Below the pieces are notes generated by a model, which saw only the letters and a program-made list of their open reading frames with translations, had not been told where the DNA came from and made no database searches. A program made the position numbers and the translations under genes. This document shows, piece after piece, positions 22,815-64,000 of a DNA stretch of 64,000 nucleotides; within the stretch, counting starts at the first letter, position 1, and the number at the start of each line of letters is the position of its first letter. The stretch comes from Carcharhinus longimanus (Eukaryota), in the NCBI GenBank assembly GCA_030264375.1, contig JASCQW010000072.1, positions 46,843,476 to 46,907,475 of the forward strand. The letters run 5' to 3'.

Positions 22815-23459
22815 ATGATAGCACAGCATGGGAGAGCACAGACTCCAAGTTTTTCCTGTCTGGGGGCATTGGTTCAGGAGGTGGAGATGAAGAGAGGTGT
22901 GCTGTATTCCACAGGGTATCAACGGGGTCTGCAGACAAACAGAAGGCATTAGGAGCAGATAGGACTCCCTCCATGATCATCCTCAACACCGGTGCCCACA
23001 AGGCTGCATCCTCAGACCCTTACTATACTCCTTATACACCTACGACTGTCTGGCCAAATTTTTCTCTAACCCAATTTTCAAGTTGGTTGATGACACCGCT
23101 ATATTGGGTTGGATCTTTGACAATGATGAGACAGAGTACAGGAATGAGGCAAAGAATCTGGTGAACTGGTGCAATGATAACAATCTCTCCCTCAATGTCA
23201 ACAAAACGAAAGAGATAGTCATTGACTTCAGGACATGCCCCTGTCTTCATCAATGGGGATGAAGTGGAAATGAAGAGCTTCAAGTTTCTAGGTGTCCAGA
23301 TCACAACAACCTTTCCTGGTCCCTCGATGCTGATGCTATAATTAGGAAAGCCAATCATAACCTCTAGGTTCTCAGAAGACTAAGGAAATTTCATTACAAC
23401 TCTCACCAACTTGGATGCAAAATTGTAAGAAATTCAATGACCTCATAGGAATCATCAAG
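22815..23459 (+). pseudogene. Harbinger Myb/SANT partner gene exon 1, interrupted by Rex1
   Basis: MIAQHGRAQTPSFSCLGALVQEVEMKRGVLYS...RRH*EQI; after the Rex1 insert, WMQ..CKKFNDLIGIIK then donor GTCAGT; NAIF1/MSANTD-like pattern. Confidence 0.8.
22965..23410 (+). mobile_element. Rex1/Babar RT fragment
   Basis: LNTGA, DDT, NLVNWCNDNNLSLNVNKTKEIVIDFR. Confidence 0.88.
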
Positions 23460-23914
23460 GTCAGTGAAATAATCTTCAAATGTTATATCCTTGTAATAGA
23501 ACCATTAATCGTACAGGCTGCTTAATGTATCACACCCCCTTCACTCACATACTAAATATCTTTATTAAGCATAATTTATTCCTCACTTTCATGGCTTAAC
23601 CTTCCCTTCACACATTTAGACCTGAATTTTCAGGATGTCCGCTTCCTGCTTTAGACACTTGGATGCTGTATCAAAATATCTGAGAGCTCACTTGACTGCC
23701 ACATTGTGCCATCTTTACTTTTACCGAAGACCCCCTTCGATGACTGGCACCACCTTTTACAGCCAGAATGCACCTGCCCTTTAAGAGAAGCAAGCTGGCT
23801 TTAAGTGGTGTGGGACTTGCATGAACTTGAGCATCTTGCCACTCAACAGAGTTGAAAACTGGACTGCAGGTCACCATCATTTAAATTGCAGATGACATGA
23901 AGTTTGACTAAAAT

Positions 23915-24225
23915 CAATGTTTTATACAAATTTAACATAGCTTTCTTTTGTACTCAATGCTCTAATAGTAAAGCCTTGGATGTGTATGCCTTAGCTACTC
24001 TCTCAATCTCTCCTGCCATCTTCAGTGTCTTATACCCATATTGCAATGCTCTCCCTTCCTCCTTTCCAACCTTTCTTGAACATCTTGTATCCAGCCATAT
24101 TTCATACCCAGTCTTGCCCTTTCAGCTTAGGTCTCTCTTATAGCCATAAGATCATATTTCCACGTGGATATCTGAACCTGCATCTCACCTATTATATTTA
24201 TCATACTGTAGGCATTCATTTTCTT
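23915..24225 (-). mobile_element. Internally deleted CR1 ORF2 (APE N-terminus joined to RT C-terminus)
   Basis: MNAYSMINIIGEMQVQISTWKYDLMAIRET...GYKMFKK, then MLNLYKTL. Confidence 0.65.
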
Positions 24226-24594
24226 TCTTCACCAAATATTTTTAAATTAATACGTCATTTAAAAAAAAAATTGGTCGGAGTTCTCTGGTCTTGTACCCCC
24301 TACCACCTCTGCCAGCAAGCAAGCAGAATTTAGCGCTCAGCTAAATCTCCATTTTCTGGCAACGGGCCAGAAAATCCCACAGGCTTGAATGGCTGGAAAG
24401 TTCCACCCAGCATTTCCCCAAACTCAAGTACACACAATAGAGAATAATCAACAACTTTTTTTTGATTCATTCAAGGAACTTGGGCATCACTGGTTAGGGC
24501 AGCATTTATTGTCCTTCCCTTTGAGAAGGAGGCGGTGAGGTGCCTCCTTGAACTGCTGCTGTCCATGCGGTGTAAGTACATCCACAGTGCTGTT

Positions 24595-24860
24595 AGGTTT
24601 ATTTAATAGTGTCACAACTAGGCCTACTTTAACAGTGCAATGAAGTTTCTGTGAAAATCCCCTCATTGCCATACTCCAGCGCCTGTTCGGGTACACTGAG
24701 GGAGAATTTAGCATGGCCAATGCACCTAACCAACACATCTTTCAGACTGTGGGAGGAAACCAGAACAGCCAGAAGAAACCATGCAGATACAATGAGAATG
24801 TGCAGATTCCACACAAACCTGTGTTCCTGGTGCTGTGTGGTAGCAGTGCTAGCCATTGTG
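24595..24860 (-). mobile_element. SINE with Rex1-like tail
   Basis: Matches 34175-34460 in reverse. Confidence 0.85.
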
Positions 24861-25124
24861 CAGTTCCAAGAACTTTGACCTGATTCACTGATGCCATGAT
24901 ATGCTTCCTCTGCATACTTCTGCATTAAGCTCCTGATCTCTCATGCCTTTAGCAAGGTAGTGTTTCAGCACAGCTGTTCTAGAAGTATTTACAAACAGCT
25001 CTTTGGTACCAAAACAGCAGATGTAGTGATGAAACCGCAAGTGCTGCAGAATCCCACCTGGGACATTAATTTGTAAGGAAACGTGCAGTAAATAAAATAG
25101 AACAGAAGATACATGGAGAAATGC

Positions 25125-25325
25125 TGCTCCAGTTTCCTCCCACAGTCCAAAGATGTGCGGGTTAGGTGGATGGGCTATGCCAATTCCCCCTTAGTCTGAG
25201 AGGGATTATTGGGGTAAATACGTGGTGTTGCGGGGATAAAAGAGAGACTGGGTGGATTGTTATCAGTGCAGACTCGATGGGCCGAATGACCTCCTTCTGC
25301 ACTGTAGGGATTCTATGATTCTATA
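25125..25325 (+). mobile_element. HE1 SINE 3' half
   Basis: CCAAAGATGTGCGGGTTAGG...GGGATTCTATGA. Confidence 0.85.
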
Positions 25326-26269
25326 ACTATAATTAAAGATTTCTACATATATTTTAAAAATCAAACTTTTTTACCTCGACTTAAATTTGGATTTCAACGT
25401 CTGAGAAATCCATGATAAGGGAAGACTAAATCAGAAAGGTGTGCTTAATATTTTAAAATCATTTCCAAGTAACAATATTAACTATAAATAGCCATGAAAA
25501 CTGACAAAACTTAAAAGTATTACAGAAAATACAAAATGCTGGAAATCTGGGAGTGGATTGAGTATGCAAGGATTCTTTGTTCTCATTTGGCCATTGAAGC
25601 TGATTGAGTCAATCACAAAATATAAAAAGGATTTAAGGAGAAAAATATTAAAAGATACAATGTACCAGCTAGGAAATGGAGTGAGGGGTACATACCTTTG
25701 GGAGGAGAGACAGTACAGACACAATAGCCAACGAACCTTTCTGTACTGAAGCTTCTTTATGGTTCAAAGAAAATTATTGAAAGGTAATTAGGTGGCAAAA
25801 TTGTGTTGCTGAGTAAATGGAAATTCAAGTTATATGAATAAGGCAGCACAGACTGCACTGACCAGATAAGTGAGAAATACCTGAGGTTCAGTTGTTAAAT
25901 GAAGAGCAGAGTGAGTGGCNNNNNNNNNNNNNNNNNNNNNNNNNNNNNNNNNNNNNNNNNNNNNNNNNNNNNNNNNNNNNNNNNNNNNNNNNNNNNNNNN
26001 NNNNNNNNNNNNNNNNNNNAGTGAGTGGCATCATAAATCTAATAATTTCCACACTTCTTTAAGGGTTTAATGTACTAGGAAAAGGGTCCCAAATCATCTT
26101 AGATCACACACTCCATTTAGCTACAAAAATTCAATGAAACAATTTCAACAGGGACATAAAATACACCTTTCCTAAAGTAAGACTGTAGGAAAGTATATCT
26201 GCAGTGTACAAACTTGAAGTAGAATTTAATAAGGTGTTCCCTTCTGTGGAGTGGGATATATTTTGGATT

Positions 26270-26820
26270 GGAAATGCCAATCTATGAATTTGCATGCATG
26301 CTTTTAGTAGATCTGCTATTGCACCCAGCTTTTCACTGTGCTCATCCAATAGTCTTTATCTGTAAACTGCTAATCTGAGTTCAGCACAATCCATATGTGA
26401 CTTCAACTTGTAGCAAGCTGGCACCTGCCCCACCTTTGTCCCCTGACCTGGCTGCGGACCATTCATTCTCAATGTCTCAGCACATACATATTCCACCTCC
26501 ATGCTACCCTGTGAACATCTGAGCTGGTGGCTGTGTGCTATTGAGTGATGCCGTTGTTTCCTAATTGTTGTCTTGCTGTTCTTCCACCACTGCAACGGGA
26601 TGGTGCAAAAAGTTCAATAATTTCACACGAGTGATCGAGATCATCTCCAAATGCCGTAGCCCACACTGGGATGAGGGGAAATGGGATGTGAGGGGGAGGA
26701 TTAGGTGATGGGATACCATCAGTTTTTATAATGGCCAGTCCTTCGTGGGGCACATCCTTTTGTGTCAATCCCCTGCCGGTTACATTCTGTTATCTCCGGT
26801 TTTATGACCCTTTGATCTGC
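26270..26820 (-). pseudogene. Harbinger Myb partner gene exon 2-3 relic
   Basis: TTGCAG acceptor then IKGS*NRR*QNVTGRG (post-Myb 'HNRRE..TGGG' motif); GSMEVEY..NGPQPGQG and RLLDEHSEKLGAIADL, homologous to 39900-40180 and 63200-63450. Confidence 0.65.
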
Positions 26821-28039
26821 AAGACAGGATGAGGCCTGTCAGTGAATGTTGTCCAATGTGCTGGGTAATTGTTGAAGAGCTGGCAGTGTGCAGTTGTGAA
26901 ATGTGGGTGAGAGTCTTGCACCAGAGATAACTGTATAATAATGAAGTGAGGTTATGAACATATGAGTTAGTGATTAATACAGACTGCTGATAGATAAGTG
27001 TAGTGTGTTGCATTGATGACATGATCAGTTTACAATGACTTCCGGAACTGTTGTAGCCACAATACATCCCCATTTTTGGAGGTGCAGGCTGGCTTCAAGT
27101 AGTGCAGGCTGGCTTTAATTGGTGCCAGCCTATGTTTGCCGTAGACTGTGCTGCCATGACCGAAAGGTCTCCATGCAGACTACGCACTAGTTGACCCCTT
27201 TAAGTTGCTACACACTAAAGAAAAGGGCTGCTCATTTAAATAAATCCCTCATGCATGCCAACAGAAATATTAAACTGCATATTGATGCTAGGCTCTGTCC
27301 ATTTTGGCCCTCCTGTTGAGATGTTCAGCCACTCAATTGCGCAATTAGTGCCAGCTACATGCTACAATCATGTTAATTTGCAGGCAGCGCCAAGCTGGCT
27401 TGTTGCCCGCATCAGAAACAAAGGCCACTGATTATTAACACATCACAATCCTGATTTCATTATTAGGAACTAATTTCAATCTTATCACTTAGCCAAAAGA
27501 TTTTGCACTCTGACAGCACAAGCACTTTGCATTTCACTTTATTTCGGGGAAATTAGTTTAAAAGTTCATTGTGAACAGGTTCGGTTTGTGGGCCTTGGTG
27601 TATATTAGGAACCCTGTAGCACCCCCCCAACTCAGACCGTTAAAAATGTGGAGCTCTGCCAGTGTCGCACTGTACTGTAATCTGAGGGCTGGATTTTCAC
27701 TCCCAAATCAGGAGTGCAGACTCAGGGGAATTGTTATCTGGAGTCCAGCCTGCTGACCCCAGAAAGAGTTCAGTGCCAAGGTTGCTGAATGACAAGGTGG
27801 ACTGGCTAAAAGCTCCACCTTGTTACTCAGAGTTTTATCCCAGGTACAATGAAAACAACAAAACAAAAACTGTCCCCATGCCCTATCTATGCCAATTCAT
27901 TGCTCTCCACCCATTCCCCTGTAGGCCCTCATACCCTGCATGCCAACCCATCACCCACCACTCCTCCCCATGGCCCTTTTTAGCCCAATGCCAAATCAAC
28001 GTCAAATCATACCTATCACATATCCACCACCCTCTGCAC

Positions 28040-32180: not shown

Positions 32181-32717
32181 CAATGACGATAATTGAACAG
32201 GTCTATTAAAGAACCAGCAGAATCACTATGGGCCAAATGGCCTCTTTCTACACTGCATCATTGCATAAGCAGATATTGAATTTGGCTCTTATTCTGTAGA
32301 CATCCAGTAGAAAAGGTCTGTTATTTGGTATGTATTGCTTGTTTCCTGTAGACAAACTACATGAACAACTGGTACCATTCAAATAGGGAACAGCATTGTG
32401 CTATACCAAATTTAGGGTTATGACATATTGGTAAATGAAGAATACAAAAAGCTTTATGATACATCGGACATATTAACGCAGTGGCCAAATCTTACCAGCC
32501 CTTCCGGCCAGCAGATCTTCTAGAGCTGCTGATTGCTAACTGCCACAGCCCCCCACCGGCCCACCCTGTGGTGCATTCCCCAGCATCAGTGAGTGCGTAG
32601 CATCCTATAGACATTAGCAGGACTGGAAGATCTCATCACCAGTCAATGAAGGAGCACTTCCAACACCAGGGCAGATGGAAAATCCTGTCCCATAGTGACT
32701 GCAGAAGAGGAGGCGCA

Positions 32718-34460: not shown

Positions 34461-34669
34461 TAAAGGATATATGGAGAGGTATACAGAGTTAACATTTCAG
34501 AAAGATTATGTCCTTTCATTTCTTCCAGATTTCCAGCATCTGCAGTACTTTGTTTAATGTTTTAAAAATTTTGTTTTTTATCCTTAGAAAGGATAAAGGA
34601 CAGGTCATAAAAAGAGTAAAGCTGAGAAAGGCCTAGTTTTAGGCCTCATTAAATGGGAATTTGAATATC

Positions 34670-36460: not shown

Positions 36461-36946
36461 ATAATTTATATACATATATTTATATATATATATATTAGGT
36501 TAGAAATTGGTCAAGATTGTTTTTTGATGGTGTGTTTGCAATATCATACAGACCATTCACAATTTTTTTTTGCTGTCTCCTCATTTAAATGAATGTTTTA
36601 CATGTTTCTAACTGTCTGCCTGCTCATTAGGAGATGGAGCAGCATTCATAGAGAGCAGATGTTAACTGATCCTCTTTAAGATAAAGTCTGTCACCCTTAA
36701 GGGGAAGCTGCAGTGAATAACAAGAGGCTGTTTCTGAATGCTATTGCTGCAATCCACCACTAACTTCTCACAGTGCTCAGTGCTTCATATCCCCATCACT
36801 CTGCAATTTCTAGCAATCAGATGCCTCTTGTCTCATATTCATCTGCTCCCCCTTGCCCTCTCACACAGAGGAAGCCTCATAGTTTGCAGCTTCCAGATAC
36901 TTTCAGTAATTCAGCTACGACAGGCAAATTACCCAGAAAGACACAG

Positions 36947-37152
36947 GGTGGTGGCGGTATTATCATTGGGCTAGTAATCCAGAGAACCAGGGTTCTCTGG
37001 GGACCCGGGTTTGAATCCCATCACACTCCACATGTGACTCCAGCAATGTGGTTGATTCTTAACTGCCCTCTGAAATGGTGTGGCAAGCCACTCAGCTCAA
37101 GGGTAATTAGGGATGGATGATAAATGCTGGCCCAACCAGCAACACTAATGAT
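36947..37152 (+). mobile_element. Third SINE family: tRNA head plus Daphne-like LINE tail
   Basis: CTAGTAATCCAGAG..GGTTTGAATCCC head; AAGGGTAATTAGGGATGG..ATAAATGCTGGCC tail. Confidence 0.7.
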
Positions 37153-37447
37153 TTTTTTTAAAAGCTCTCTGTCACTCTGTCTCTATCAGAATGAGGAAGT
37201 ACATAACAAGAGGTGACAGTAATGATCTAGTGGAGGACAGGCCCAACTGGATGGCGTCACCTTATTGGCATGACCATTGGCACGATGATCAGCAACATTA
37301 AGGCCATCCAGATTGATCGGATGTTCCTGTTTTAGGGATCTTCTCAAATCCCACTTCACCCTTATCTCATAATCTGGTATGAGGTGGAAGTTGTCAGATT
37401 GGGTGACTATGAACATCTTGCTTTTCAGCCATGCCCCTTCACTCACC

Positions 37448-38625
37448 TGTTAGGGCTGGGCTCAGAGGAGCCCCATTACCCCACAGGTCGCAACTTTAAA
37501 GTAAATGTTTAATTCACTCATAAATTTACCTTCATTGCTGTTAGACCCAGGATAAAAGGGACTTTAACCAGGTTTCTTTCAATAGACTCAGAAACAAGTT
37601 GTAAGAACTAGATAACACATAACTGTAATCTGGAAGTAGAACTATCTATCCCTTTTTAAAAAAAACCCACACACTCACATATAGACATGTGAACAGATAA
37701 ATAAGGTCTCTGCAGAGGTGGGCTTTGAAGGGTAGGCTTTATACATTAAAAGATGAAGTTTGTGAGGTTTGGATGCTGTCAATCTAGAATTCGCTCTTGT
37801 GAAGATGGGCTGCTGGTCCTAATAAATATCTGGAAGTTCTCACCAAGGGAGCTTCAGTTTGGAGGAGAATGCAGAGCCGAATAAATTCTTCTTGTCCCAA
37901 CTTTCCCGGTTTCCAAATGGAGACAAGTTACACTCAGATGAGGGTTGTCTGACTGCAGGTAGATAACCACACATGGATTTTCAGACAAGGCAGAGAGAGA
38001 GAGAGAGAGGGCAGCTTTTCTTCTCAGCGTATTCCCCAAAATAATGTAATTTCAAAAATAACCAGGCCAAAATAATTTCTGTCATATAATTTCTGGTGAA
38101 TCACTTGCTTTTCCCAGTTTTCTCCCCATTGTTTAAAATAATCATGGTACAACAAGCACACAGCAGTTCATTCCCTTTCAAGTATAGCACGATGACACAG
38201 TGGTTGGTACTGTTGCCTCGCAGCACGAGGGACCGGGGTTCAATTCCGGCCTTGGGTCACTGTGTGGAGTTTGCACATTCTCCCCGTTTCTGTGTGGGTT
38301 TCCTCCAGGTGCTCCGGTTTCCTCCCACAGTCCAACGATGTGTGGGTTAAGTTGATTGCTATGCTAAGTTGCCCCTTATTATCAGGGGGACTAGCAGAGT
38401 GGATAGGTGGGGTATAGGGCCTGGGTGTGAATGTTGTCGGTGTAGGGTCAATGGGTCGAATGGCCTCCTTTTGTATTGTAGAGATTCTATGATGCTGCTT
38501 AGATGATTCCTTGGAAAAGAGCAGGTGTACTCCAAGTTCAAGGTGAACTTATAACCTTCTTTAAAAAATTCCAAATATCCAGATATCATTGTGTCCCTCT
38601 GTATATGAAAAGAAAATTACAGTTT
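37448..38625. mobile_element. Possible long solo LTR with a nested HE1 SINE
   Basis: Abrupt start TGTTAGGG, LTR-like composition; right end and TSD not found. Confidence 0.35.
38185..38492 (+). mobile_element. HE1-type SINE
   Basis: Complete head, V-domain and tail. Confidence 0.9.
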
Positions 38626-38954
38626 TGAAAGACGGGGAGCAGAATTTTTCAGCCCCCTCCCCCGGTGGATCTTCCCATGGCAGAGGTGACTCAGCATTGG
38701 TCACTCATGAGATCTTCGGATCCCACCACAGTTAATGGCAATTTGCTTGGCTCACTTTCCTACAGCCAGGGAACCCACAGTGGGCGTTGGCTTTAGCAGA
38801 ACCAAAGAATCTGGTTGGTGGAAAGAGCTGGCAAATCCTGTCCGTGAGTTTTATACACCTCAAACATTCCCTATGCATTTTGGACTTCACATAGCCAAGA
38901 ACTGTTTTCTTATCAGCTGGTGATGCCCAGGCTGGCTATTTGTCCAGATTTGAA

Positions 38955-39262
38955 GGTAAAATATATTTATTGGTCACAAGTAGGCTTACATCAACACCAC
39001 AATGAAATTACTGTGAAAATCTCCTATTTGCCACACTCCGGTTTCGGTTGGGGTACACTGAGGGAGAATTTAGCATGGTCAATGCACCTAATCAGCATGT
39101 CTTTTTGGGCTGTGGGAGAAAACCAGAGCACCTGGAAGAAACCCATGCAGACATGGAGGGCACATGCAGACCCTGCACAGACAGTGACCCAAGCCGGAAT
39201 CAAACCCAGATCCTTGGTGCTGTGAGGCAGCAGTGCTAACCACTATCGCACTGTGCCACCCC
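38955..39262 (-). mobile_element. SINE with Rex1-like tail
   Basis: Full copy in reverse. Confidence 0.88.
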
Positions 39263-39440
39263 TTGTACTGCACGGTCCAATTATTAGTTAGTCTGACCAC
39301 TGTTTCATACTGGATAGTTTTATGCCTGTTATTCTGCTCTTAACCCACTTCATGCAGTGAAGTACTGACTGGAGTCTGTGCTCTCTCCTTTCCTGAGCTG
39401 CAGCAGCCTCAAACTGACTGGAACACAGAAAACAGAGATT

Positions 39441-39646
39441 GGGCTGGATTTACCACACAACCTTCTATGGTTTTCATAGAGGCGGGCGGTGGTTCTCCAT
39501 TGGTCAGCAGTGGGATATTCTGGTACCTGTTATCAATGGAGTTTCCTGGTGAATGCACCCCTTGATGCCATGGAATCCATGGTGGGGGTACACCATCAGC
39601 TAAACCAGAAGATCCCACCAGTGTGAACAGCCGAAAAGTTCCAGCC
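39441..39646. mobile_element. Harbinger-type MITE, TSD ATT
   Basis: ATT|GGGCTGGATTT ... AAGTTCCAGCC|ATT; related MITEs near 24270, 32483, 38635, 53578, 60005. Confidence 0.75.
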
Positions 39647-39819
39647 ATTGGCTTTCATATTTTTTTCCTCCATCAATCCACCTCCAAATTGCCATCTCTC
39701 ACTTACTTACAACTGGACCTTTCCAATCTTGAAGCACGATTACATTATCTCTAAACGCAAGGACATCTCTGAGTGTTGTGATGGTGTCCTTAGTGGCCTC
39801 TGGCAGTGGCCACACCACT

Positions 39820-40180
39820 GGCATCAGAGAATTTAGGAGCAGAGGAAGAGCTGAGAAAGAAGCGCTGTAATATGATTGCACTCTTACAGTCACCAGACCA
39901 GATACTGGCATTAAGCATACCTCAGAGGATTAGAGAGTGTTTGGATCAGCCCGGGATGCATTCCCAGGCTCAAATGGGCTGCAGTCAGGCCCGAGGTAAA
40001 GACTATGGGTTTCCTTACCAGGTGACAAGGTCACCAGGTGACTTCAGGATCAAGTGAGGATTTCAGTGGGTTAATATACAGGAACTGGATGATACACATG
40101 GAAATGTCTGGTCCATTGATGTACTCGCCAAAAAGCCTCTTATTTTTGTCGAGGAGCATAGAGGAGTCCAATGTCACAAT
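39820..40180 (+). pseudogene. Harbinger Myb partner gene exon 3 relic
   Basis: FGSARDAFPGSNGLQ; EDFSGLIYRNWMIHMEMSGPL..PKSLLFLSRSIEES aligns with 63360-63460. Confidence 0.55.
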
Positions 40181-41448: not shown

Positions 41449-42954
41449 NNNNNNNNNNNNNNNNNNNNNNNNNNNNNNNNNNNNNNNNNNNNNNNNNNNN
41501 NNNNNNNNNNNNNNNNNNNNNNNNNNNNNNNNNNNNNNNNNNNNNNNNNNNNNNNNNNNNNNNNNNNNNNNNNNNNNNNNNNNNNNNNNNNNNNNNNNNN
41601 NNNNNNNNNNNNNNNNNNNNNNNNNNNNNNNNNNNNNNNNNNNNNNNNNNNNNNNNNNNNNNNNNNNNNNNNNNNNNNNNNNNNNNNNNNNNNNNNNNNN
41701 NNNNNNNNNNNNNNNNNNNNNNNNNNNNNNNNNNNNNNNNNNNNNNNNNNNNNNNNNNNNNNNNNNNNNNNNNNNNNNNNNNNNNNNNNNNNNNNNGATG
41801 TGGCGGCGCGGGCTTGTTGGGCCGAAGGGCCTGTTTCCCGTGCTGGGTTGTTCTTTGTTCTTTGTTTGTTAATCGCGGCCTATGATTTTATGATTCCAAC
41901 AATGTTCACTGAATACAAATACTTTGGCTATCTGGTTGTAAATAGCATGAAGCAGGATGTGATGCATGTTGTGCACAGTGCCAGGAGCAGATTAAGGCTC
42001 AATTGGATAATCCACACAAGAGCTTGAGGTTCATGGTACATGATTATCCATCACCCAATTAAGTGCAGCCAAACAGTGTACAATTCCAGGATTATAATTG
42101 ACAGCCTAGAGCTGAAAACACTGTTGTGTGGTGTGACAGATTTAAAAAATTATTTGTTTATGGAATTTGGACATCGCTGCTACGCATTTATTGCCCATTC
42201 GTAACTGCCCTTGAGAAGATGGTGGGGAGCTGTCTTCTTGAACTGCTGCAGTCCCTGAGGTACACCCACAGTGCTGTTACGAAGGGAGCTCGAGGATTGT
42301 GATCCAGCAACAATGAAAGGACAGCAATATATTTCAGGATGGTGTATGGTTTGGAAGGGGGCTTTCAGGTGGTGATGTTCCCATGTGGCTGCTGCCCTAT
42401 TCCTTCCAGAATGCAGTTAATTTGGAAGATGTCATCAAAAGAACTTTGTAGGTGGCAAACAAGGCTGCCACTGTGCATTAGTGGTGGAGGGAATGAATGT
42501 TTAAGATGGTGGATGGGTGCCAATCAAATGGGCTGCTTTGTCCTGGATGGTGTTGAGCTTCTTGGAGCTGTATTTATCCAGGAAAGTGGAGAGTATTCCA
42601 TAACAGTCCTGACTTGTGCTTTTTACAAGCTGGACAGGTTTTGTGAAGTCAGGAGGTGAGTAACTTTCTGCAGAATTCCCAGAGTCTGACCTGCCCTTGT
42701 AGCCACAGTATTTATATGGCTGGTGCAGTTCAGTTTCTGGTCAACGGCAACCCTCAACGTGTGATAGAGGAGGATTCAGCAATAGTAATATTATTGAATG
42801 TCAAGAGGAGATGATTACCTTCTCTCTTGTTGGAGATGGTCATTTCCTGGCATTNNNNNNNNNNNNNNNNNNNNNNNNNNNNNNNNNNNNNNNNNNNNNN
42901 NNNNNNNNNNNNNNNNNNNNNNNNNNNNNNNNNNNNNNNNNNNNNNNNNNNNNN

Positions 42955-43186
42955 GGTGGTGAATCTCTGGAATTCTCTGCCCGTTGAAGTGGTGGAGGCT
43001 GCCTCGCTAAATATTTTTAAGATGCGGGTTGGTGGGTTTTTGATAAGCGAGGGGATTAAGGGTTATGGGGAGAGGGCGGGGAGTGTGGAACTGAGACACG
43101 ACAGATCAGCCATGGTCTTATTGAATGGCGGGGCAGGCTCAAAGGGCTGGATGGCCTACTCCTGCTCCTATTTCTTATGTTCTTAT
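42955..43186 (+). mobile_element. Young CR1 3' end
   Basis: VVNLWNSLP..GIKGYG; TTCTTATG tail. Confidence 0.9.
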
Positions 43187-43343
43187 TTCCCAATATACAG
43201 ATTATAGCAAAGTGATGAGTTATATGGCATTCTGGACATATGTTTATACATGCGCATCACAAAATAGCCTCTAAAACCTATAACAATATAACAGGGGCTG
43301 AAATTGTGTACACAACATTTGATGACTTTCAGAAAAGTTTGAA

Positions 43344-43535
43344 ATGGCAAAAAAGTAAGAGAACAGATCCTCAGCTTTTCAGATGCTGAGCTTCAGTCAT
43401 TGGTGTAGGATGTTGACCAGAAAAGAGATCTATTTTTCCAGGAGGCGAGGAGACCTTGTAGATGAGCTGTCAGCAGGTAATAACAGCAGGTAGCTATGCA
43501 CTGTTACTATAGCCCCCATGTCTGGTGTAGTCAGA
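43344..43535 (+). pseudogene. Harbinger Myb/SANT exon 1 relic
   Basis: FSDAELQSLV*DVDQKRDLFFQEARRP...QQVA. Confidence 0.75.
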
Positions 43536-44223
43536 GGCCGTCCAGTAACAACAAATAGCTTCCGAATGTCTAGCACCATTCCTTGCAAACATTAGTAACT
43601 TCAATGATTCAACGATTTTCCCAACTCAATCCTGTTACAGATTACACAAGAGCCAGTAGATAATAATAATCAAATGACCTGCGGGTTGGAGAGATCCCTT
43701 CAAGCAGAGCTGGTTAGAAGGACTGGGTAGTTCCTGTTGTACCTGAGTGCACATGCTGCTGGTATGTTTACTACAGGATGTTATCTGAGACTGCAAGATC
43801 GAAAATGGAAGGTCATTTATCAAATCAGCATTAGATATGGGCTGCTGTCACAACCTGCCCACTCAACATACCTCCTGTGTGCGTCACAGCATGGCAATCA
43901 CATGGGCCATATCAGGAATGCTGGGGAGTGTCTCCTCCACCCCACTATTTCTCATCTCAAGTGGTACCCACTACCCCAAAACTACTGGCGTGACAGAACT
44001 GAGCACTGGGACCATTGCCTTGGCATTAATTTTTCATTTGTCATTCATACCAAGGCAAGAGCTACATCTTGCCTTCAAACAACTGCAAAACCTCAAACCC
44101 CTTACTTCTTGCCTTCAAACAACNNNNNNNNNNNNNNNNNNNNNNNNNNNNNNNNNNNNNNNNNNNNNNNNNNNNNNNNNNNNNNNNNNNNNNNNNNNNN
44201 NNNNNNNNNNNNNNNNNNNNNNN

Positions 44224-44449: not shown

Positions 44450-44870
44450 TCATAATGTGACACAGCCAGTATGTGCCATCCTTTGAGCTATGTTCATGAA
44501 AGTACTCTTCAGGAAAGATTTTTGCCTCTGACCCAGATAGTGTAGGCCACAGGATATCTTCTGAGATGACCCAGCAATAACAGAGTGATTGTCGAGTTGA
44601 GTGAGTGTCTTTGAATTGGGAATTGTACTCATTGGCAGACTGAGAATATTGACACTCAATGTAGTTGACTTTGAACAGCTGGTGGGATAGGCAGACCCTT
44701 TATATTATCCCTTAGCCATGATACAAAGTGAGAAGTCTCAGGGTGAAGGACAGTAACTAATGCTGATGTCATGAGGCAGTTGTGCTGTTTTGGCAGGCCC
44801 GTGTCATGGGGCTGCTAATCAACTCCATTTGTTGTTCAAGTGAAATGTTTTAAACAGCTGTGGAATCTTT
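44450..44870 (-). mobile_element. Possible very decayed Harbinger transposase
   Basis: Faint FHS, EYN and C.TL motifs; convergent with the Myb relic at 43344. Confidence 0.3.
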
Positions 44871-45184
44871 GACGCCTGTCCCAGGCATTAGGTGCACAGC
44901 CCTTGTGAATGCAAGCTACAAACTCACTAATGGTTTAGGATTCTGGCTGATTCATCCATGCAAACTAACACAGCTGTAATCATCCTCTGACTGTCCGGAA
45001 ACACTTGAAATTGTTCCGGCTACAGCCGCTGTCATTCCAGTTCAAAGCTGGACATTGACACTGATGATCCCTGAACGAGTCAACAAACTTTTCATCAATC
45101 TGAAACTCATACCCAAACTCATAATGTGACGCAGTCTGCATGTGTCACCAGCAGACAAAGCACAGACTTACTCTCGCCTTGTGT

Positions 45185-48580: not shown

Positions 48581-48720
48581 AGGTTGTTATGGCCAACTGC
48601 TGTCATCTGACTGCTAATAAATCGTGCCATCTTGCAGTTATTCATTAACTTGTCCTACTTAAAATCTAATATTGTTTCCTTAATGTTAGTGCAACCAGAG
48701 CCATGTGTTTGCCCAGATTA

Positions 48721-48873
48721 GGAAATCAAACAGGTCAGCATCTTTCCCGCTCTGCAAGCTCAGGTGGACTTGGCAGATAAAGTTGTTTCATAGTGAGCGA
48801 CTATGAAACAACTTTATCTACCAAGTCCACCTGAGCTTGCAGAGAGGGGGAGGTGCTGACCTGTTTGATTTCC
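48721..48873. mobile_element. Palindromic MITE (74-bp arms, 5-nt loop), TSD TTA
   Basis: Arms 48721-48794 and 48800-48873 match at 69 of 74; TTA at 48718-48720 and 48874-48876. Confidence 0.85.
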
Positions 48874-49157
48874 TTAAGTTGTTCTTCTGAAAAAAAAAGC
48901 CAGGTGTCTGCTGCTTGTCCTGCTGCCTGGATAATTAGTGGCCAATTTTGCCATCTCACACTGGACGATTCTCTCAAATCATTATTTACTTATGCTTTTT
49001 TAAAAATTGAACAGCATCTGAACAGTTGATCTCCATTCCCCCAAATCTTGTATTGCTATTTTCCAAAACTTTCAATACAATATAAAAGACATTTTAGTGT
49101 ACTCAGATTGAAGTTGTTAATTCCCCACTTTTTTGAGTATGAATATTTACCCTGTTA

Positions 49158-50872: not shown

Positions 50873-51824
50873 TTGAATCTAGTTAGCTCGAACAGTTGCT
50901 TGAACTATGATAAATTAACTCAAGAATCTGTGGATTTTAGGTTGTCCACCATTTCAAAGTTAAATCTTCCCATAAGATCAAGAAGTGATATTAGCATTCC
51001 TCTAACATAGGCTTTGTTTTGATTAATCCTCATTTTGCTTATCTAGATTTACCACTCTGCCAGTTGCTGACTTGTGCAGTTTGCCTATTGAAATTGTACT
51101 TCATTAGTTGTAAAAGGCTTTGGTATCCTAAGGTCATGAAACTCTCTTTCTTTTTATAGCTATTGATGTCACTTTAAGTAAGCGTGCAAAACTTTTAATA
51201 TAACAGACTCTAAAGTGGGCTTTGTGGCTTCTTTGTCTTTTAACGTGCTGTGTGGCAACTCAACACTCAAAAATAGGATCTGGGATGTACATGCCAGCTT
51301 CTGATGGGAAATGCACCTCAGTAAAGGGTTTTGCACATGTGTACCCAACAACTGCAGAGCAGGTAGATCATAACGTGAATCAGTGTGCAACACTTATTTA
51401 ATCTCAGAACTGCCCATTTCAATTCCCATATTCAGATTTGGCACAGACTTGGAGGGCCAAAGAGCCTGTGTTGTACATTTCTTGGCCCTTTTTGTTTCTC
51501 TAGCCAATGCCCTGTCTTAACCTTGCACAGGCGCATTAAACAGTACAAAGAGCAGCCCCCAAACCCTGCCAGCATAATTTAAAGGCATGTGAGACTACTT
51601 ACATTTTAGTTACTAGATTACTTTTGAAATGGTTGTACAATTCTCCATGTCTTTGGAGTTTTCCTGTCTTAGGCTGAAGTGTAAATAATCTACATGGAGT
51701 GATCTGGTTGGAAAAGTACTTTTCCCTTTATTTAAACCTTTCGCTGGAACAAATTGCTCCAGGCATGGGTGGCTTGTTAAGGCTTCCATGAAGGGAGGCC
51801 ATGGGGAGCAGGACAAGCTTCTCA

Positions 51825-52130
51825 AAGTGGAGGAGAAGGAGGGGAAGAAGGAATCTTAACAGAATGCCATATCTGCTGAGGGTCTTTAGAGAGCAATTTG
51901 CTTATCTCAACTTCAGTGTTGGCCAATATCTGAGAAATCTTTACTTCATTATTTGGTCATGACAGAAATCTCTTAATGCTGCAGCCACAGCTGAAACCTC
52001 AAAGCAGGGCAAGGATATTATTGCCAGTGGCTGTCAAGGTTACTGTGGCTCTTAGCTTTTATGCAGCTGGTTCCTTCCAGAATATTGCAGAAGATATGAG
52101 CAATATCTTATAGTTCGTCACACACACTGC
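51825..52130 (+). mobile_element. Harbinger transposase N-terminal relic
   Basis: RRRRGRRNLNRMPYLLRVFREQFAYLNFS; LQPQLKPQSRARILLPVAVKVTVALSFYAAGSFQ. Confidence 0.88.
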
Positions 52131-54099
52131 TGTTTAAGCATCTGAGTCTTTACACACAGAGGAACTGCTTAATGTTATTCCTTGAAAATATCAGAGCATG
52201 TTCACATATGCCCACCCACTCCTGAAAGTATCCCAGCTCAGATTCACTTCACAAAATCCTCCCACTACCTTTTGCAGCCACAGTCTTGCCTTTAAGAGGT
52301 TCAAGCTATCCTTAAGAATTGTTAACTACTGACTAATATGGGCAGCCGTTGAACAGAGTGGGTAGTGCTGGCTGAATACAGCAATCATGCAATGAATAAG
52401 ACAGCAAGACTACAATGAAGAGGTGTGGATTAATTGTGCATTGCACCCATTAGCCAAATGAAACACCTGACATGTCTTAATTACAGAGCACACTTTTATA
52501 ACATATCCAGCCACAGCGCTTCCTACATTATCCATAGGTATTGAATATTGAGCAGTTGCATTAGTTTTTCACCCCAGCTAGATATGGATTGGTTGGTTGC
52601 AAGAACTGCATGCAGCTAATGTCACATCCCTTTGCAATGTGAACAATAATGTGTTCTGGTTTCTTTTAAAATCTTTTACTATCCCTAACACTGCAGTGAT
52701 ACTGATTCAAATCAGGATTTATAATACTTATTGGGAGGTGGCAATTCCTGCTTTTCTGTCAGTTTCTCAGACATGTGTGCAAAGCTTTATTCCTCAACAG
52801 TAAACTGGAGCTGTATCGAAAGCATCTTTAAAACAACCTTTGCTTGAGTTTGTAAAAGCCCAGTCAGATGCAAACGCTGTACACTTTTTAATTCCAGTCT
52901 CACTCTGTACTAAATGAGACATGACAGTACACTAGCGTTTTATCCTATGAATTATCCAAGTCAACTTGTGACAGATGCATTGCTACAAAGTAGGACTGTC
53001 GATATGCTGAGCTCCATAAATGAGTCCAAAGATGTGTAGGTTAGGTGGATTAGTCATGGTAAATGTGTGGGGTTATGGGGATAGGGCAGAGGAATGGGCC
53101 TGGGTAAGATGCTCTTTCAGAGAGTTGTGCAGATTTGATGGGCTGAACAGCCTCCTTCTGCACAGTAGGGATTTTAACAGTTGAGAAAGAAAGCTAGGGC
53201 AGCATCGCCACACTAAAACTCAACTGGAATCTGACAGAAGATTTCTGAACGTTACACATATTTCTGTATTTACACCCTGCAACAGCATCGCTAATTTTAG
53301 AAAATAAATTCTTAAACTGTAGAAATAAATAAATGGATTTATTTTGAAAGTGGATTTGTTTAACGAGCTAAGCAATAGTTGGCACATCACCTCAGCAATT
53401 TTCCTCTCTGTTGCCTCCAGTAATCTGGATACCACAGCTAGCAAACAAAGTCTGTCATTCAAAGTATGATGTTTTGTTTCCTTCCAGAAAAACCGTCACC
53501 GAGGAAATGAGCTGATCCAGCAGATTAAAGGATAGACATGAATATGTGATCAGAGAGTCAGTTCAACAGAAGATCCATGGACTGAATTCTCCGGGCCCCT
53601 GGGAGAGGGGATTGACGGTGGCAGGGGATAGAATGGCAGGGTGGGAAGGAAAATAGTGGGAAGCTGCATCAGGATGGCCCCTTGACATATTTGCACTTCG
53701 AGGGGAGAGGAACATCCAGGGGATGAGCAGCCGGTTATGTCACTTAAGAGCCATTCAGGGCCTTTTTCCCATGGAGATAGGATCTACCTGCCTTTCAGGA
53801 GAATTCAAGAAACAGGCTGTGGACTATCTCCAGCTGCCTCCCATATTTCACCCCCCTCACCTCCCAGCTAGCCAAAACTATGGGAAAAATCTGCCCACAG
53901 CTAGGACTGCTGAGCATTTCTCCCCATAGAATAAGGGCCGTCAGTCGTAACACTTAATTTTAGCACTCATGAGGCAACATGCCTACTCTGTAATAAGAAC
54001 AAAAGATGCCAAAAACTCTCAGCAGATCTGTAGAGGGAGGAAAACAGAGTTAATGTTTTGAGTCAGATTGACTCTTTTAGGGCCTACTTCGTAACCTTT

Positions 54100-54390: not shown

Positions 54391-54736
54391 TCTGTTTAGA
54401 TGCAGTGCTCATAAACCAGTGTTAATCAGATACCAGAGTATGTTACACTTTGTCCACTAACCAAGTCCCGTGCCTAGAGTCCAAGGTAGAAAGACTCATC
54501 TCAGAACAGTCCCCCACTATATTGGCAACACTTACCTCCATCTCACCCACAGCCTTGGACACTTCTATTGACCCTTCTGCCATCCCTAAATTGGACTGCA
54601 CTCCTGGAGTTGTCCTCCTAATTGCCCCCATTTGGGAAAACCGCACAAGCAGGCAGGACTTGGAGATCACTGGGGTCAGGAGCAACAGATGGTCCGGGCT
54701 CCCAAAGTAAGAATCAGGCTCATGTCTCCCACAGGA

Positions 54737-54923
54737 CAGTAAGAAGTCTGACAACACCACGTTTAATTCCAAACGATTTATTTGATAGTAAACTCACAAG
54801 CTTTCGAGGTTAAACTCTTCGTTAGGTGATTCACCTATCAAATAAATCAGTTGGACTTAGACCTGGTGTTGTCAGACTTCTTACTGTATTTACCCCAGTC
54901 CAACGCCAGCATCTCCACATCAT
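54737..54923. mobile_element. Penelope inverted pLTR pair with a TCCCACAGGA flanking duplication
   Basis: ACAGTAAGAAGTCTGACAACACCA / TGGTGTTGTCAGACTTCTTACTGT inverted; decayed hammerhead on minus (CTAACGA..CGAAAGCTT). Confidence 0.8.
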
Positions 54924-58323: not shown

Positions 58324-58349
58324 AAGATATGGTTGGAACTTCTAATGGT

Positions 58350-59257: not shown

Positions 59258-60656
59258 TAAGGGCATGATTTATTGGCTCTTGGATTATATGGAGATGACA
59301 ATGATACATTATTCTATCGTATATTCTTTCATGGGATGTAAGCCTCACTGTCTTAGCATTCATTGCCGAACCCTAATTGCCCTTGTGAAGATGATGGTGA
59401 GCTGTATTCTTGAACTGCTGCTTTTGGGAAAGGAGTTCCAGGATTTTGACCCAGTGCCAGTGAAGGAGCCGTGATATAGTTCCAAGTCAGGATGGTGAAT
59501 AGTTTGGAAGAGAACTTGGAGGTAGTTTTCTCATGCATCTGCTTCCCTTGTTCGCATATGTGGTAGATTTTGCAGGTTTAGAAGGTGCTTTCAAAGGACT
59601 GTTAGTGCAATACTGTAGTGCATCTCATAGATGGCACGCATGCCAGCCACTTTGTGTCAGTGATGGTTGTAGAAAATATCTAGGGGATACTTTCTGATGA
59701 GTAAGGTACTGATCATTGATTAGCCTTGTTGCAACAGTAATGCTGTTCAGTATGAGAGGATCTGCAGGTTCAGACGTTTGCTGTTCATCTAAACATGATA
59801 CTTTCCCACAAATGTAACTGCAGCACTGTTAACTTACTCTGTTTTCCTTTTGCAGTCAGCCGCATTTGAATCTTGTCCATTCTTTTCAAGTGGCATACTT
59901 TTGGATGCCTTCATCTCTATGAAAGGTCTTCTCCTCAATACCAGTGTAGCTCACAAAGTACTAAAGACAATGACAAAGAATGGTGAATTGCAGGAGTTAC
60001 TGCAGGCTGGATTTTCCTGATCCTGCAAGGCTAAGGAAGTAGATGGGCTGGGGAGGTCTGGGGAACCATGTCCCGTTGGCAGCTTAGCATATTTCTGCTG
60101 ATGGGTGAAGTTCCCATGGACAAGTGCAGACCCAGGTCGTCTCTCCACACCATGGAGAGATGGGCATCCAATTAAGCTGATTACAGGTCTACCTTTGAGG
60201 TTGATGAGCATTTTGCCAGTTGTGTGGCCTTTGGCACCTGCTCCATGCTGGTGGCAAGATAAACTGAATCCATGGCCTAAAGAATTACCTGGAGTAGTTT
60301 TCCTCCTCTTCAATGGGCCAAATAACAATTTAAATAAACCCTTCTGAGGGAGCCTCCATGTTAAGACCCCCTCATAGTCCTCATCTTGCCTCAGCGGCCA
60401 CCACCTCTCCCAGTGGGGCCACCAAGGTGCCAGAGCTGTGGCCCTGTGGACTGGCAGCATTAAGAAATGTCAGTGAGTTCTCAATCGGATGGCAAGCATG
60501 GAGGAAGCCAATTAGGAGGCCATCTTTGTGGCGATTGTGATATTAGGCCATTTGCCAGTAAGGGTGGCCTCAGGGTCCTCACTGTAGTGCTGTGGGTCCA
60601 GGAGCTGTGCAAAATTTCAGCCCTTAGTTGTCGGATCTGTGTCATGTTGTATTGTA

Positions 60657-60880
60657 CATAAGAACATAAGAACATAAGAAATAGGAGCAGGAGTAGGCCA
60701 TCTAGCCCTTCAAGCCTGCCCCGCCATTCANNNNNNNNNNNNNNNNNNNNNNNNNNNNNNNNNNNNNNNNNNNNNNNNNNNNNNNNNNNNNNNNNNNNNN
60801 NNNNNNNNNNNNNNNNNNNNNNNNNNNNNNCTACCAAAGTGGACCACCTCGCACTTGCCAACATTAAATTCCATTTGCCA
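60657..60880 (-). mobile_element. Young CR1 collapsed into a gap
   Basis: KWQMEFNVGKCEVVHFG, gap, tail. Confidence 0.88.
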
Positions 60881-61492
60881 TTTCCTTGTAGAAAAGGTTC
60901 CTGTAGGCAAACCCACATTTTAAAAAGCACAGCCCTAGAAAATCTACTGAGAGCACCAACTGTTGGCCTCTGCTTTTGACTCCAATGAAGAATCAAGATT
61001 TGCGCTCCATACCCACCTTGGAATCCAGGCAGGTGACCATGCCACTGACAGCAATGCGACTTGGCACCAACTAAAAGATAGAAGGGATGGGGAAAATGGA
61101 GAAGTGTGAGGTTGACCTGCCTTGCATGCAGTTGCTGGTGACTCCACTATCTCCCAAAAATGTACAATAGCCTAGGAACCCCAGTCATAAAAGAGGGAAA
61201 AGGGATTTCCAAGCCTGTACTTCAAGTGGACCTCACATCTGCCTCTTCAAATGCCCTCACAACTGATGGTGCCTATCACCAATGACTAGGCTGCAGTGAG
61301 AACCTCAAACCCAGCATCTCACTTCACTCTTTCATTCCACTTATGGCAAGATTCAGCAGGGGGTTATTCCCTTTTTGTATAAAAAGATTTTTTTATTAGC
61401 CATGTGAACACAGTAATGTTCCTATGTCCCCCATATATTCTCCTCATAGATTTGGATAACAGATTTATATGTGCGGGACATACAGCTTCACA

Positions 61493-61820
61493 TGGGCAGC
61501 ACGGTGGCACAATGGTTAACATTGCTGCCCCACAATGCCAAGGACCTGAGTTTGATTCCAGCCTTGGGTCACTGCCTATGTACATTCTGCCCGTGGCCTG
61601 TGCGGGTTTCCTCCAGGTGCTCTGGTGTCCTCCCACACGCCAAAGATCTGTGGGTTGGGTTAACTGGCAATGCTTAATTGCGCCCTAGTGTCCCAGGATG
61701 TGTAGGTTAGGAGGATTAACAGGGTAAATACATGTGGTCATGGGGATAGGATGCTCTAGTTGGTGCTGACTCAATGGGCAAATGGCCTCCTTCTGCACCG
61801 TAGCGATTCTATGATTCTGT
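61493..61820 (+). mobile_element. HE1-type SINE
   Basis: Full copy. Confidence 0.88.
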
Positions 61821-63084
61821 GAAACACTAACTTGAGTGCTCTAGTCTCAGCACTGCTAACCCCTTTGAGTTCAATTTTAACTCCTTTGAGCTCAAAGTTA
61901 ACAAGAATGGCAATTTTCAATGATTCCCTTGCATAACATCAATTGCAAAATATTTGTCTATAATGATCTCCAATTTTACAAGTCTACATTCATCTTCAGC
62001 AGTTTGTGGCTTTTATTTTTATGGCCACTATATATTGTGCAGATTGATGAAGGTATTCACTATTCAAAGCACTGCCCATGTGGCCAACTAAAGGTGGCCA
62101 ATAGTATTGGCAATAAAAGGCCAACTGTTTGATAAATAACCCTGCCAACTCGCAGTCTCACAAATGGAAAGAGTGCTGCCAACTTGGCTTAAGGTTGGTA
62201 TGCTATATATCATGACCCTGTTTATAAAGACTATTATTAATCCAACCAATGAAGATTAAATTTTATCTTCTCCTTTAGAGTCAGTAGACTTTAATCCCAT
62301 CACAGGTGAATATTTATTCCTTCATTGTTGCTTGCCCACTTATTCATTACCTCAGGTTTCTATCCATGATCAATAGATACTTTGCAGACAGAATTGGAAG
62401 AAACAATCTGCAGGAGCATATGCCGATTGATTACAACATAATATTATCAAGCCATCTGCTATTGAATTAGTTATAAGCGTTATGATGTTGGTTTTACAGG
62501 CAAAGGATCCAGGTACAATAATTTGCATAAGGTGTAGAGGGATGGAGGGGCTAGACTAGGAATTAATATTAGAAAAAACTATTAGCATCTAGTGTAATGC
62601 ATTCAGTCAAGCTGCGTACAATTTAGCTGTCTCGCGTCCGAGGGATCCATCTGCTCTCTGCATAATCAAAGACTTTGCAGCATAAAAATGGAAGACTGCT
62701 GTAAACTTTACAACTACTGGCAAAACTAAATCAGTTCAATGCTACAGCAAAACAGTGACATAAATACACATGCCTTGAATAAAAGGAGCACACTCATTGT
62801 AAAATAGGAAGGTAAGATAATGGAGGGAATTTTAACCTAGGAAGACCTGATGGAATAGGATTGAATACACATGGAGAGAAAGCTTGAGGACATCAACAAG
62901 CAGGGCTGTCTGCACTGCGTTCAGCTCCAGGCAAGTTTGAAACTGAGGCTGGATCACATGACACACTCCTCTCAATCTGATTGCATTCTGCTTTCCCATA
63001 AAGGCATATTATAACAACTCCCCACCACCCCACCCCACCCCCTCACTTGTTCAAAACCCTACACATGCGTATTTTCCTTTTAGA

Positions 63085-63530
63085 TACCCATGAACTGAAA
63101 CCTGGCCAGACAGTGGTGGAAGAGATAAAGGAGGAACAGCAGAAAGATAGTGATGAAGAAGAAATATTGTCACTTTCATGATACAAGTCCAGAAACTACA
63201 TTGAATATAGCTTAGAAATGGGATCTGCACATGGTGAGAGATCAGGTATAAATAGCCTGCAGCACAGGACAGGACACAAAATTAGCCCAGATATTGGCTC
63301 ACCATATGACAAGATTGCATATGGGTTCTGTTGCAAAAGAACTCATGGGGTGACTAACAGAATAAGGTTAATCAGCATGCACATAGAAACACTTGGTGTA
63401 TTAGCAGACATACCACAAATCCCCTGGTCAATGTCCTGGAGCAAGGAGGGATCTAACACCAGCTTGGCACAGGCCTTTACATAGAGCTTGTAAATGCATT
63501 CTTTCCAGTGTGGAAGTGATGGTCAACTCT
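63085..63530 (+). pseudogene. Harbinger Myb partner gene last-exon relic
   Basis: TTTTCCTTTTAG acceptor; EEQQKDSDEEEILSL, SLEMGSAHGERSGINSLQ, RLISMHIETLGVLADIP. Confidence 0.65.
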
Positions 63531-63759
63531 ATGGAGATCCGTGCAGACCATCCATGATACAGTGATTGATGCAGGCTAACAATGCAACTCCTATTGCAGC
63601 CCAAGCAGAAGTCACCCAATATCTGGGTATTGCAGACTGAAGTCATCCAAGTTGCCATGCAGACTCAAGCAGACACTATCATAGCAATGAATATCAGTAT
63701 TTCCCAGTATCGCAGGCAGATGAGTTAATGGCAGAAAGTCTGAACAGAAAGGGGCTGTA

Positions 63760-64000
63760 TTAGTTGCCTCCTTCTTTCTTCTTCCGTTTCTTCTCCCACT
63801 GCTTCTCACCCTATAGCCGCTGGAAAGGATGTCCATTCATACAAGCAAGGTTGTGCAGCATATAAAACAAAACCCATACCAAGTCTTGCTATAAGCTCAG
63901 CTGAGCACTGAAGGACTCCTCCAGTCAGTAGAAGTGTTGCTTAAGCACCCCAGTAGTCTGCTTTGTTACAGTTTGTGTGGTAATATTGTTTGCATTATAT
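63760..64000 (-). mobile_element. Harbinger transposase C-terminal relic, continuing beyond the window
   Basis: YNANNITTQTVTKQTTGVLKQHF, GGVLQCSAE, MLHNLACMNG, then a charged tail. Confidence 0.8.

Follow-up and report, generated by a model that had tools for sequence, protein, structure and literature searches.

A dead two-gene Harbinger family in a Carcharhinus longimanus genome window and its intact, probably domesticated elasmobranch relatives

We analysed a 64,000-nucleotide stretch of the genome of the shark Carcharhinus longimanus (assembly GCA_030264375.1, contig JASCQW010000072.1, positions 46,843,476 to 46,907,475 of the forward strand), referred to below as the window. With good confidence we read it as holding some 13 dead, broken insertions of an old 3.7-kb PIF/Harbinger transposon, here called family B, together with a second Harbinger family, and we read the intact, conserved elasmobranch relatives of both family B genes as likely domesticated host regulators. 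The family B insertions are separate, lie in both orientations and are accompanied by one copy of the second family, family A; all the Harbinger copies in the window are dead and decayed. A preliminary description of this DNA had rebuilt an ancient two-gene Harbinger system from its fragments. The fragments do fit one 3.7-kb consensus, but that consensus was rebuilt from genomic copies and not from the window, because the window holds many separate insertions that differ by 25-41% (mean 33%) from it.

The family B element and its remains in the window

The family B DNA profile was built from 36 of 40 genomic loci, all outside the window, which were picked as the best genomic matches to last-exon proteins and fetched as 10-kb stretches; four loci with intact genes were excluded from the consensus. 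In the resulting consensus of ~3.7 kb, a Myb/SANT gene of three exons and a DDE transposase gene of one exon converge, with near-open frames for both and GT-AG junctions, and the same convergent layout is found in 20 of the 21 genomic loci that carry both genes. From the left end, a tandem 16-mer is followed by exons 1, 2 and 3 and then, tail to tail, by the transposase. Exon 1 encodes a Myb/SANT (trihelix) domain, closes at K|GT and matches the sawshark protein P0040 at E 7e-15, P0040 itself matching PF13873 at E 2e-10. Exon 2 is recognised by an NRR..GG motif, and exon 3 encodes an acidic linker and then two long amphipathic helices. In the transposase consensus frame D, D and E are all present, and the frame groups with PF13359 proteins.

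The element is bounded by imperfect 14-bp terminal inverted repeats. The left-end consensus, taken from 40 ends, is GGGGGCAAAATTGG; the right end, taken from 25, is its imperfect reverse complement; in single copies the repeats are degenerate. The 16-mer forms a tandem pair in the left subterminal region, ~70-90 bp ahead of the Myb start codon. The word TTAAAGGG occurs upstream of each open reading frame (ORF) in both subterminal regions and may serve as a promoter element or as a target of Myb binding. A possible splice donor lies upstream of the transposase start.

The decay of the family is evident from 75 aligned segments, which differ by 23-43% (mean 30%) from the consensus. The dead copies carry 89 stops in 5,384 codons (1.65 per 100 codons), only one of 36 is free of stops, and their ratio of non-synonymous to synonymous substitution rates (dN/dS) to the consensus is 0.70. 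One copy, L127 (G000:C32:71.133-71.136 Mb), has both ends with the transposase deleted.

When applied to the window, the profile gives 33 matches at E<=1, 26 of them at E<=1e-3, and none on the reversed window. Most of the parts named in the preliminary description were recovered in this way. Its first Myb exon, at 22815-23459 and ending at K|GT, is found as two pieces, 22439-22962 and 23409-23589, split by a reverse-transcriptase fragment and with the exon junction at 23459/23460, and its further exon 1 copies appear in the family profile at 43311-43497, 19414-19973 and 23664-23906 (-). The proposed exon 2, with NRR..TGRG, lies at 26663-27017 (-) and is broken by stops. The three last exons, at 26287-26593 (-), 39844-40175 and 63035-63699, match P0040 by tblastn at E 4e-9, 2e-5 and 1e-14, with none in the reversed control; the shared upstream 16-mer has four window matches at <=1 mismatch and none in 40 control stretches; and the convergent transposase at the end of the window is present at 63704-64000 (-). 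The Myb assignment in the window follows from our own profiles, with an independent E-value (iE) of 1.7e-4 at 43358-43498, and from the Pfam Myb scores of the intact relatives described below. The inventory was nevertheless incomplete, as it missed transposase remnants at 4945-5454, 14896-16013 and 51499-52124 and the family A copy at 9966-12690. The window mixes at least two Harbinger families.

One assignment failed. The stretch 44450-44870, suggested to be a further transposase, has no match to the family B DNA profile, and its protein scores are marginal (iE 0.08-0.28; tblastx E 0.012), so that it was rejected as a family B transposase. Marginal transposase similarity is present at 44532-44970 (-), including to the other Harbinger clade (L026; E 0.012), and this stretch may belong to a very decayed third family.

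To judge abundance we sampled large scaffolds blindly, taking 40 stretches of 10 kb that lie at round coordinates (322,649 non-N bases). Family B gives 10 matches in five of them, or 1.06% (bootstrap 0.2-2.0%), which rules out a share of about 15% of the genome; the family makes up 14.6% of the window versus about 1% genome-wide. Scaled up roughly to the 2.68-Gb genome, this would come to some 67,000 fragments, together equal to 6,000 full-length elements. The proposed elasmobranch Harbinger, present in high copy number and with a Myb partner gene of three exons, is supported by 5,655 DDE_Tnp_4 and 5,340 P0040 first-look candidates in addition to the convergent layout reported above. The window is a local pile-up, for which passive survival in gene-poor DNA would be the simplest cause. 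An insertion hotspot or a silencing locus resembling a PIWI-interacting RNA (piRNA) cluster would fit the presence of both orientations and two families, the extension of copies into the flanking 10-kb stretches and the 35 of 40 control stretches without family B. We nonetheless think it improbable: the controls are patchy too, one of them reaching 17%, one fragment pair in the window may be an assembly duplicate, and no convincing host exon turned up when the 80 longest of the 210 non-repeat window frames were compared with Pfam, as would fit neutral DNA. Recognisable repeats make up roughly half of the window. Genome papers have already recorded Harbingers for sharks, so that the window, taken by itself, is unremarkable, decayed transposon DNA.

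Intact relatives elsewhere in the genome

The preliminary description also supposed that intact or domesticated copies might exist elsewhere. We indeed found open Myb and transposase-like genes with elasmobranch orthologues, the intact frames spanning 365-689 aa across loci. There are at least four intact three-exon Myb genes, L111, L112, L227 and L228, with a common GT-AG layout and open frames of 404, 412, 412 and 380 aa. The intact Myb relatives match PF13873 at E 4e-10 to 5e-12. The closest named proteins to the intact genes are from sharks, with Mustelus at 90-98%, and a protein search with exon 3 of L111 returned 31 matches, every one of them to a shark, ray or skate and almost all under the name 'uncharacterized'. 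Top matches to the intact genes are elasmobranch only; weaker Myb-domain matches include frog, axolotl and teleost proteins.

In trees, the four Myb orthologue groups largely track species relationships (one tree has 35 rows, several long-branch or partial rows being left out). The family B consensus branches apart, next to Heterodontus P0055 and to sawshark P0040, with which it shares 64% identity over exon 3. L227 has orthologues at 92-98% identity and clusters with 11 shark members at >=90%. Between Myb paralogues dN/dS is 0.27 and 0.31, versus 0.70 in the dead copies, which points to purifying selection. Contig data for L111 show 23 coding differences, 13 synonymous and 10 non-synonymous. 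Its exon 1-2 junction is present in contigs of all three sequencing runs taken as RNA, which come from three studies, and its exon 2-3 junction in two of the three, both at GT-AG sites; in a DNA-like run the L111 introns are retained. Around L111-L118 the family B profile matches coding parts only, with no element ends.

L111 has a tandem neighbour, L113/L131, which contains an assembly gap. The two are divergent in exon 1 and near-identical in exon 3, which suggests gene conversion. Two further loci, L203 (C146:45.63 Mb) and L204 (C175:0.715 Mb), have open exon 2-3 frames of 427 and 382 aa free of stops; the DNA retrieved around them, which contains N gaps, showed no exon 1. In family A, L110 (G000:C81:80884-80886 kb) is an intact three-exon Myb gene of 524 aa with its transposase largely deleted. 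Among database proteins, P0048 (Heptranchias), P0063 (Rhincodon), P0036 and P0076 have unusual Myb/last-exon fusions, the last exon standing after a SAMD1 WH domain in Heptranchias and after KH domains in Rhincodon; a three-Myb protein occurs in Pristiophorus and a KRAB-Myb protein in axolotl. These odd joins are possibly cases of exon capture or of annotation joining.

In an AlphaFold model of the Myb protein the trihelix is confident and is followed, after a disordered linker, by two long helices that span residues 226-291 and 299-345 (predicted local distance difference test 57-72). The helices have a 3.6-residue hydrophobic periodicity and are generic amphipathic ones. By sequence, the C-terminal region matches no Pfam family and no solved relative, and its atlas matches all fall below 0.9, the best named one being a plant trihelix family at 0.79. 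A complex prediction for sawshark transposase P0207 with Myb protein P0040, in which alignments were not used, scored 0.00 and is evidence neither way.

On the transposase side, 25 top DDE_Tnp_4 loci were fetched of 150 scored, and eight of these have long open frames of the family's clade. At least five intact transposase-like genes belong to orthologue groups that, in the searches run, were confined to sharks and rays; L025, L032, L028, L118 and L042 each join proteins of further shark or ray species in a clade with good support. A profile made from six transposases, with which 7,991 candidates were scored, retrieves 28 proteins at E<=1e-125, of which 27 are elasmobranch proteins named 'putative nuclease HARBI1' and the other, unnamed, clusters with elasmobranch proteins. 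The first D or the E is missing in seven of the eight long open frames. The L025 cluster has 25 members, and the 16 orthologues examined, which range from sharks to skates and are 92-98% identical, all share one D-to-G change. Contigs of all three runs taken as RNA cover L032, and six of its nine listed coding differences are synonymous. No transposase was found near L111-L113.

L023 keeps the full DDE triad and adjoins a decayed family A Myb gene, the pair L023/L109 at G000:C99:71.215 Mb consisting of an open transposase frame beside that gene. L023 may be either a copy of recent origin or an active nuclease that was tamed not long ago. The dead transposases L029 and L042 have long, in-frame, low-complexity repeat extensions at the N terminus.

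Proposed mechanism and competing explanations

Myb-like proteins of Harbinger elements bind the element ends and import and recruit the transposase (PMC9392472). By extension from zebrafish and plant Harbingers, the family B Myb protein would bind the element ends and bring the transposase through its C-terminal helices, and the element would move by cut-and-paste, its copies being broken later by deletions and by insertions of long and short interspersed nuclear elements (LINEs and SINEs). The lineage was presumably active before the split of sharks and rays, because the derived genes are common to both, and several related families would have been tamed, more than once. The intact Myb proteins would then likely supply sequence-specific DNA binding, with the mostly catalytically dead transposases likely serving as scaffolds, as in plant HDP1/HDP2. 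The C-terminal region of HDP2 is required to bind HDP1 (PMC5339849); by analogy, it is plausible that the intact Myb genes pair with the dead transposases, and the most likely role of the shark C-terminal region would be to oligomerise and dock the transposase. A broader version, which we put forward tentatively and consider rather unlikely, is a multi-gene elasmobranch regulatory system in which at least four Myb proteins and at least five mostly dead transposases pair combinatorially through the C-terminal helices, with dead copies as binding sites. If true, it would be an animal counterpart of the plant HDP/ALP chromatin modules, supplied with binding sites by tens of thousands of dead copies.

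Domestication could also have been independent on the two sides, the Myb proteins acting as stand-alone transcription factors with self-associating helices and the dead transposases using other partners or repressing Harbinger movement as dominant negatives. The Myb and transposase genes are unlinked, the helices are generic, and the best named look-alike of the C-terminal part is the plant trihelix family already mentioned, under the 0.9 bar; on the other hand, the HARBI1-NAIF1 and HDP1-HDP2 interactions were retained after domestication (PMC9392472, PMC5339849), and both gene kinds have been retained in parallel in the same lineage. We give independent domestication somewhat less than an even chance. 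That the intact genes are merely well-preserved or horizontally moved transposon copies, which would leave the reading of the window intact, is very unlikely in our judgement. One copy per orthologue group in the genome (among the matches scored), trees that track species, identities of 92-98% from sharks to skates combined with a common catalytic loss, the lack of family B ends around L111-L118 and the splicing of L111 in contigs of three studies all speak against mobile copies. What such copies would explain is the DDE triad of L023 beside a decayed Myb gene, the intact family A Myb gene L110 beside a transposase remnant and several intact sawshark frames near family B. Finally, the NCBI name 'putative nuclease HARBI1', and one Myb cluster member named 'nuclear apoptosis-inducing factor 1', might be taken to mean that the transposase-like genes are just HARBI1 orthologues in sharks, and the Myb genes those of NAIF1/MSANTD; several paralogues at about 45% identity and top matches confined to elasmobranchs (7,991 candidates scored; trees without human HARBI1/NAIF1) make this very unlikely.

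Several points count against the explanation that we propose. In the trees the intact genes appear as sisters of family B and are not nested within it, so that the window family is a relative and not shown as the donor. Orthology is judged from trees and identity; L022 and L029 are less secure in the tree, the L022 group being unresolved. Any earlier phase as a transposon is averaged into the dN/dS of paralogues, and dS is saturated in most of the transposase pairs. The sequencing runs are only guessed to be RNA, and coverage of L032, which has no intron, cannot prove RNA origin. Catalytic loss is not uniform, since the DDE triad is kept in the L028 orthologues of Pristis and Chiloscyllium and in the L022 relatives of two sharks; the triad positions were set by alignment and recall, and the L118 frame shifts at a run of N. 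No Myb exon was found within 10 kb around L022, L025, L028, L029, L032 and L024/L118, and Foldseek gave no match at E<=0.001, the best being the Zeste DNA-binding domain at E 0.11. As to the element itself, a TWA target-site duplication was seen in none of 14 left and one of 14 right flanks, its register being uncertain at 30% decay. Family B is accordingly placed in PIF/Harbinger at the superfamily level, by its sequence, the unrecovered TWA duplication being the mark that would set it against NuwaI/II and Pangu.

Known systems, coordinates and further observations

Family B resembles vertebrate PIF/Harbinger elements (group definition in PMC4482050) in its two ORFs for a DDE_Tnp_4 transposase and a Myb/SANT protein, its short terminal repeats and its length of about 3.7 kb, the reported mean for teleost and coelacanth families being about 4.1 kb (PMC9179366). 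It differs from them in being old and dead at 23-43% from its consensus, in its unrecovered target-site duplication, and in a partner gene with three exons and C-terminal helices without a Pfam family. The superfamily has been reported absent in sharks (PMC4482050), and absent in elephant shark with other cartilaginous fish to be tested (PMC9179366); nevertheless, PIF-Harbinger is listed in the repeat tables of whale shark (PMC8455134) and grey reef shark (PMC12498223). In the latter, DNA transposons make up 1.58%, mostly Tourist/Harbinger, with which the 1.06% for family B agrees. The available text of these two papers, supplements aside, describes neither the anatomy of an element nor a partner gene or host genes derived from it, and the word 'Harbinger' does not occur in the main text of the catshark genome paper.

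Like HARBI1, NAIF1 and MSANTD1-4 (PMC9392472), the shark genes would be host genes from Harbinger transposase and Myb ORFs, with three- or four-exon Myb structure and purifying selection. Those genes date to the base of jawed vertebrates or of sarcopterygians, and the scope of that study is genes found in human; the shark genes, unlike them, occur only in elasmobranchs in the searches run and comprise several genes of each kind. HDP1/HDP2 of plants (PMC5339849) and the co-domesticated PIF pairs of insects (PMC9710019) likewise combine an incomplete-DDE transposase with a Myb/MADF partner. Unlike in those pairs, the shark genes examined are not adjacent, and their interaction and chromatin role would follow by analogy. 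Our literature search, which lay outside subscription papers, Repbase Reports and supplements, found no published description of elasmobranch-specific Harbinger-derived genes and no paper on dead shark Harbinger transposases.

The presence of the Harbinger superfamily in sharks is thus already known, and what is worth following is the elasmobranch-specific gene sets, above all the conserved dead transposases. The window yields the anatomy of a family covering about 1% of a shark genome and bears on the published question of whether Harbingers are absent from sharks (PMC4482050) or were possibly lost in cartilaginous fish (PMC9179366). It also leads to a shark and ray gene set hidden under the automatic names 'putative nuclease HARBI1' and 'uncharacterized protein', which gives concrete test genes in catshark or skate. 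If both Harbinger genes were indeed domesticated repeatedly within a single vertebrate lineage, this would add to what is known from HARBI1, NAIF1 and MSANTD. Coordinates are collected in Table 1.

Table 1. Harbinger remains in the window and intact relatives outside it. Strand is the consensus orientation, with the Myb gene on +.
Feature	Position	Strand	Remark
Family B: right end, transposase remnant, 3' region (consensus 1795-3684)	4017..5888	-	split by SINE-like repeat; transposase remnant at 4945-5454
Family B: left end with tandem 16-mer (8805)	8708..8907	-	family profile
Family A: Myb-gene last exon 9966-11741 (+), convergent transposase remnant 12176-12690 (-)	9966..12690	+	dead; PF13359 E 7.8e-14; tblastn E 3e-66
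Family B: nearly whole transposase remnant (coded on -), right-hand region	14896..16431	+	E 7e-115; transposase remnant 14896-16013
Family B: left end, Myb exon 1 remnant	19414..19973	+	E 4e-35
Family B: left-end fragment adjoining assembly gap	21538..21676	+	family profile
Family B: left end with motif (22654), then Myb exon 1 (22815-23459, K|GT)	22439..23589	+	interrupted by reverse-transcriptase fragment
LINE reverse-transcriptase fragment inside exon 1, presumably Rex1-like	22963..23408	+	RVT_1 E 1e-6, just under cut-off
Family B: left region, exon 1 start, motif at 23804	23664..23906	-	family profile
Family B: weak right-end fragment	24888..25019	+	E 0.002
Family B: left end with motif in tandem (27098, 27118), intron 1, exon 2 and beginning of exon 3	26287..27471	-	exon 1 deleted
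Family B: single copy, now five collinear pieces, with left region, intron 1 and exons 2 and 3	36567..40175	+	exon 3 at 39844-40175; pieces parted by later insertions
Family B, internally deleted: left end, exon 1 start (43311-43497) fused to right-hand region	42000..43892	+	
Family B, internally deleted: left end, transposase 5' half, right-hand region	51287..52447	-	transposase remnant 51499-52124
Family B: Myb exon 3 remnant (acidic linker, amphipathic helices)	63035..63699	+	P0040 E 1e-14; profile E 1.5e-103; copy runs collinearly ~2.6 kb beyond window edge
Convergent DDE transposase remnant, C-terminal part	63704..64000	-	iE 3e-9
Tandem Myb genes L111 and L113/L131	G000:C119:11.31-11.40 Mb		
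Intact Myb gene L112	C81:90.63 Mb		
Intact Myb gene L227	C122:2.44 Mb		
Intact transposase-like gene L025	G000:C190:49.50 Mb		
Intact transposase-like gene L032	C81:57.15 Mb		
Intact transposase-like gene L028	C1:58.82 Mb		
Intact transposase-like gene L118	C81:81.59 Mb		

Two window fragments share 77 identical bp in inverted orientation (21604-21680 and 23834-23910), one copy abutting an N gap. The pair is probably an assembly duplicate, and hence two of the family B fragments may be one. The last exon of the family A copy at 9966-12690 encodes a repeated 14-residue helical unit and is related to L109, L110 and L122.

The stretch at 62865-63020 was considered as a Harbinger part and rejected, as none of the 29 loci fetched with this repeat had a Myb or transposase match; it is a distinct high-copy repeat of ~150 bp, with 474 candidates at about 77% identity, outside the Harbinger consensus. 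Self-comparison of the window also revealed inverted, self-complementary arrangements of common repeats at 48720-48874, 1751-2091 and 54736-54887.

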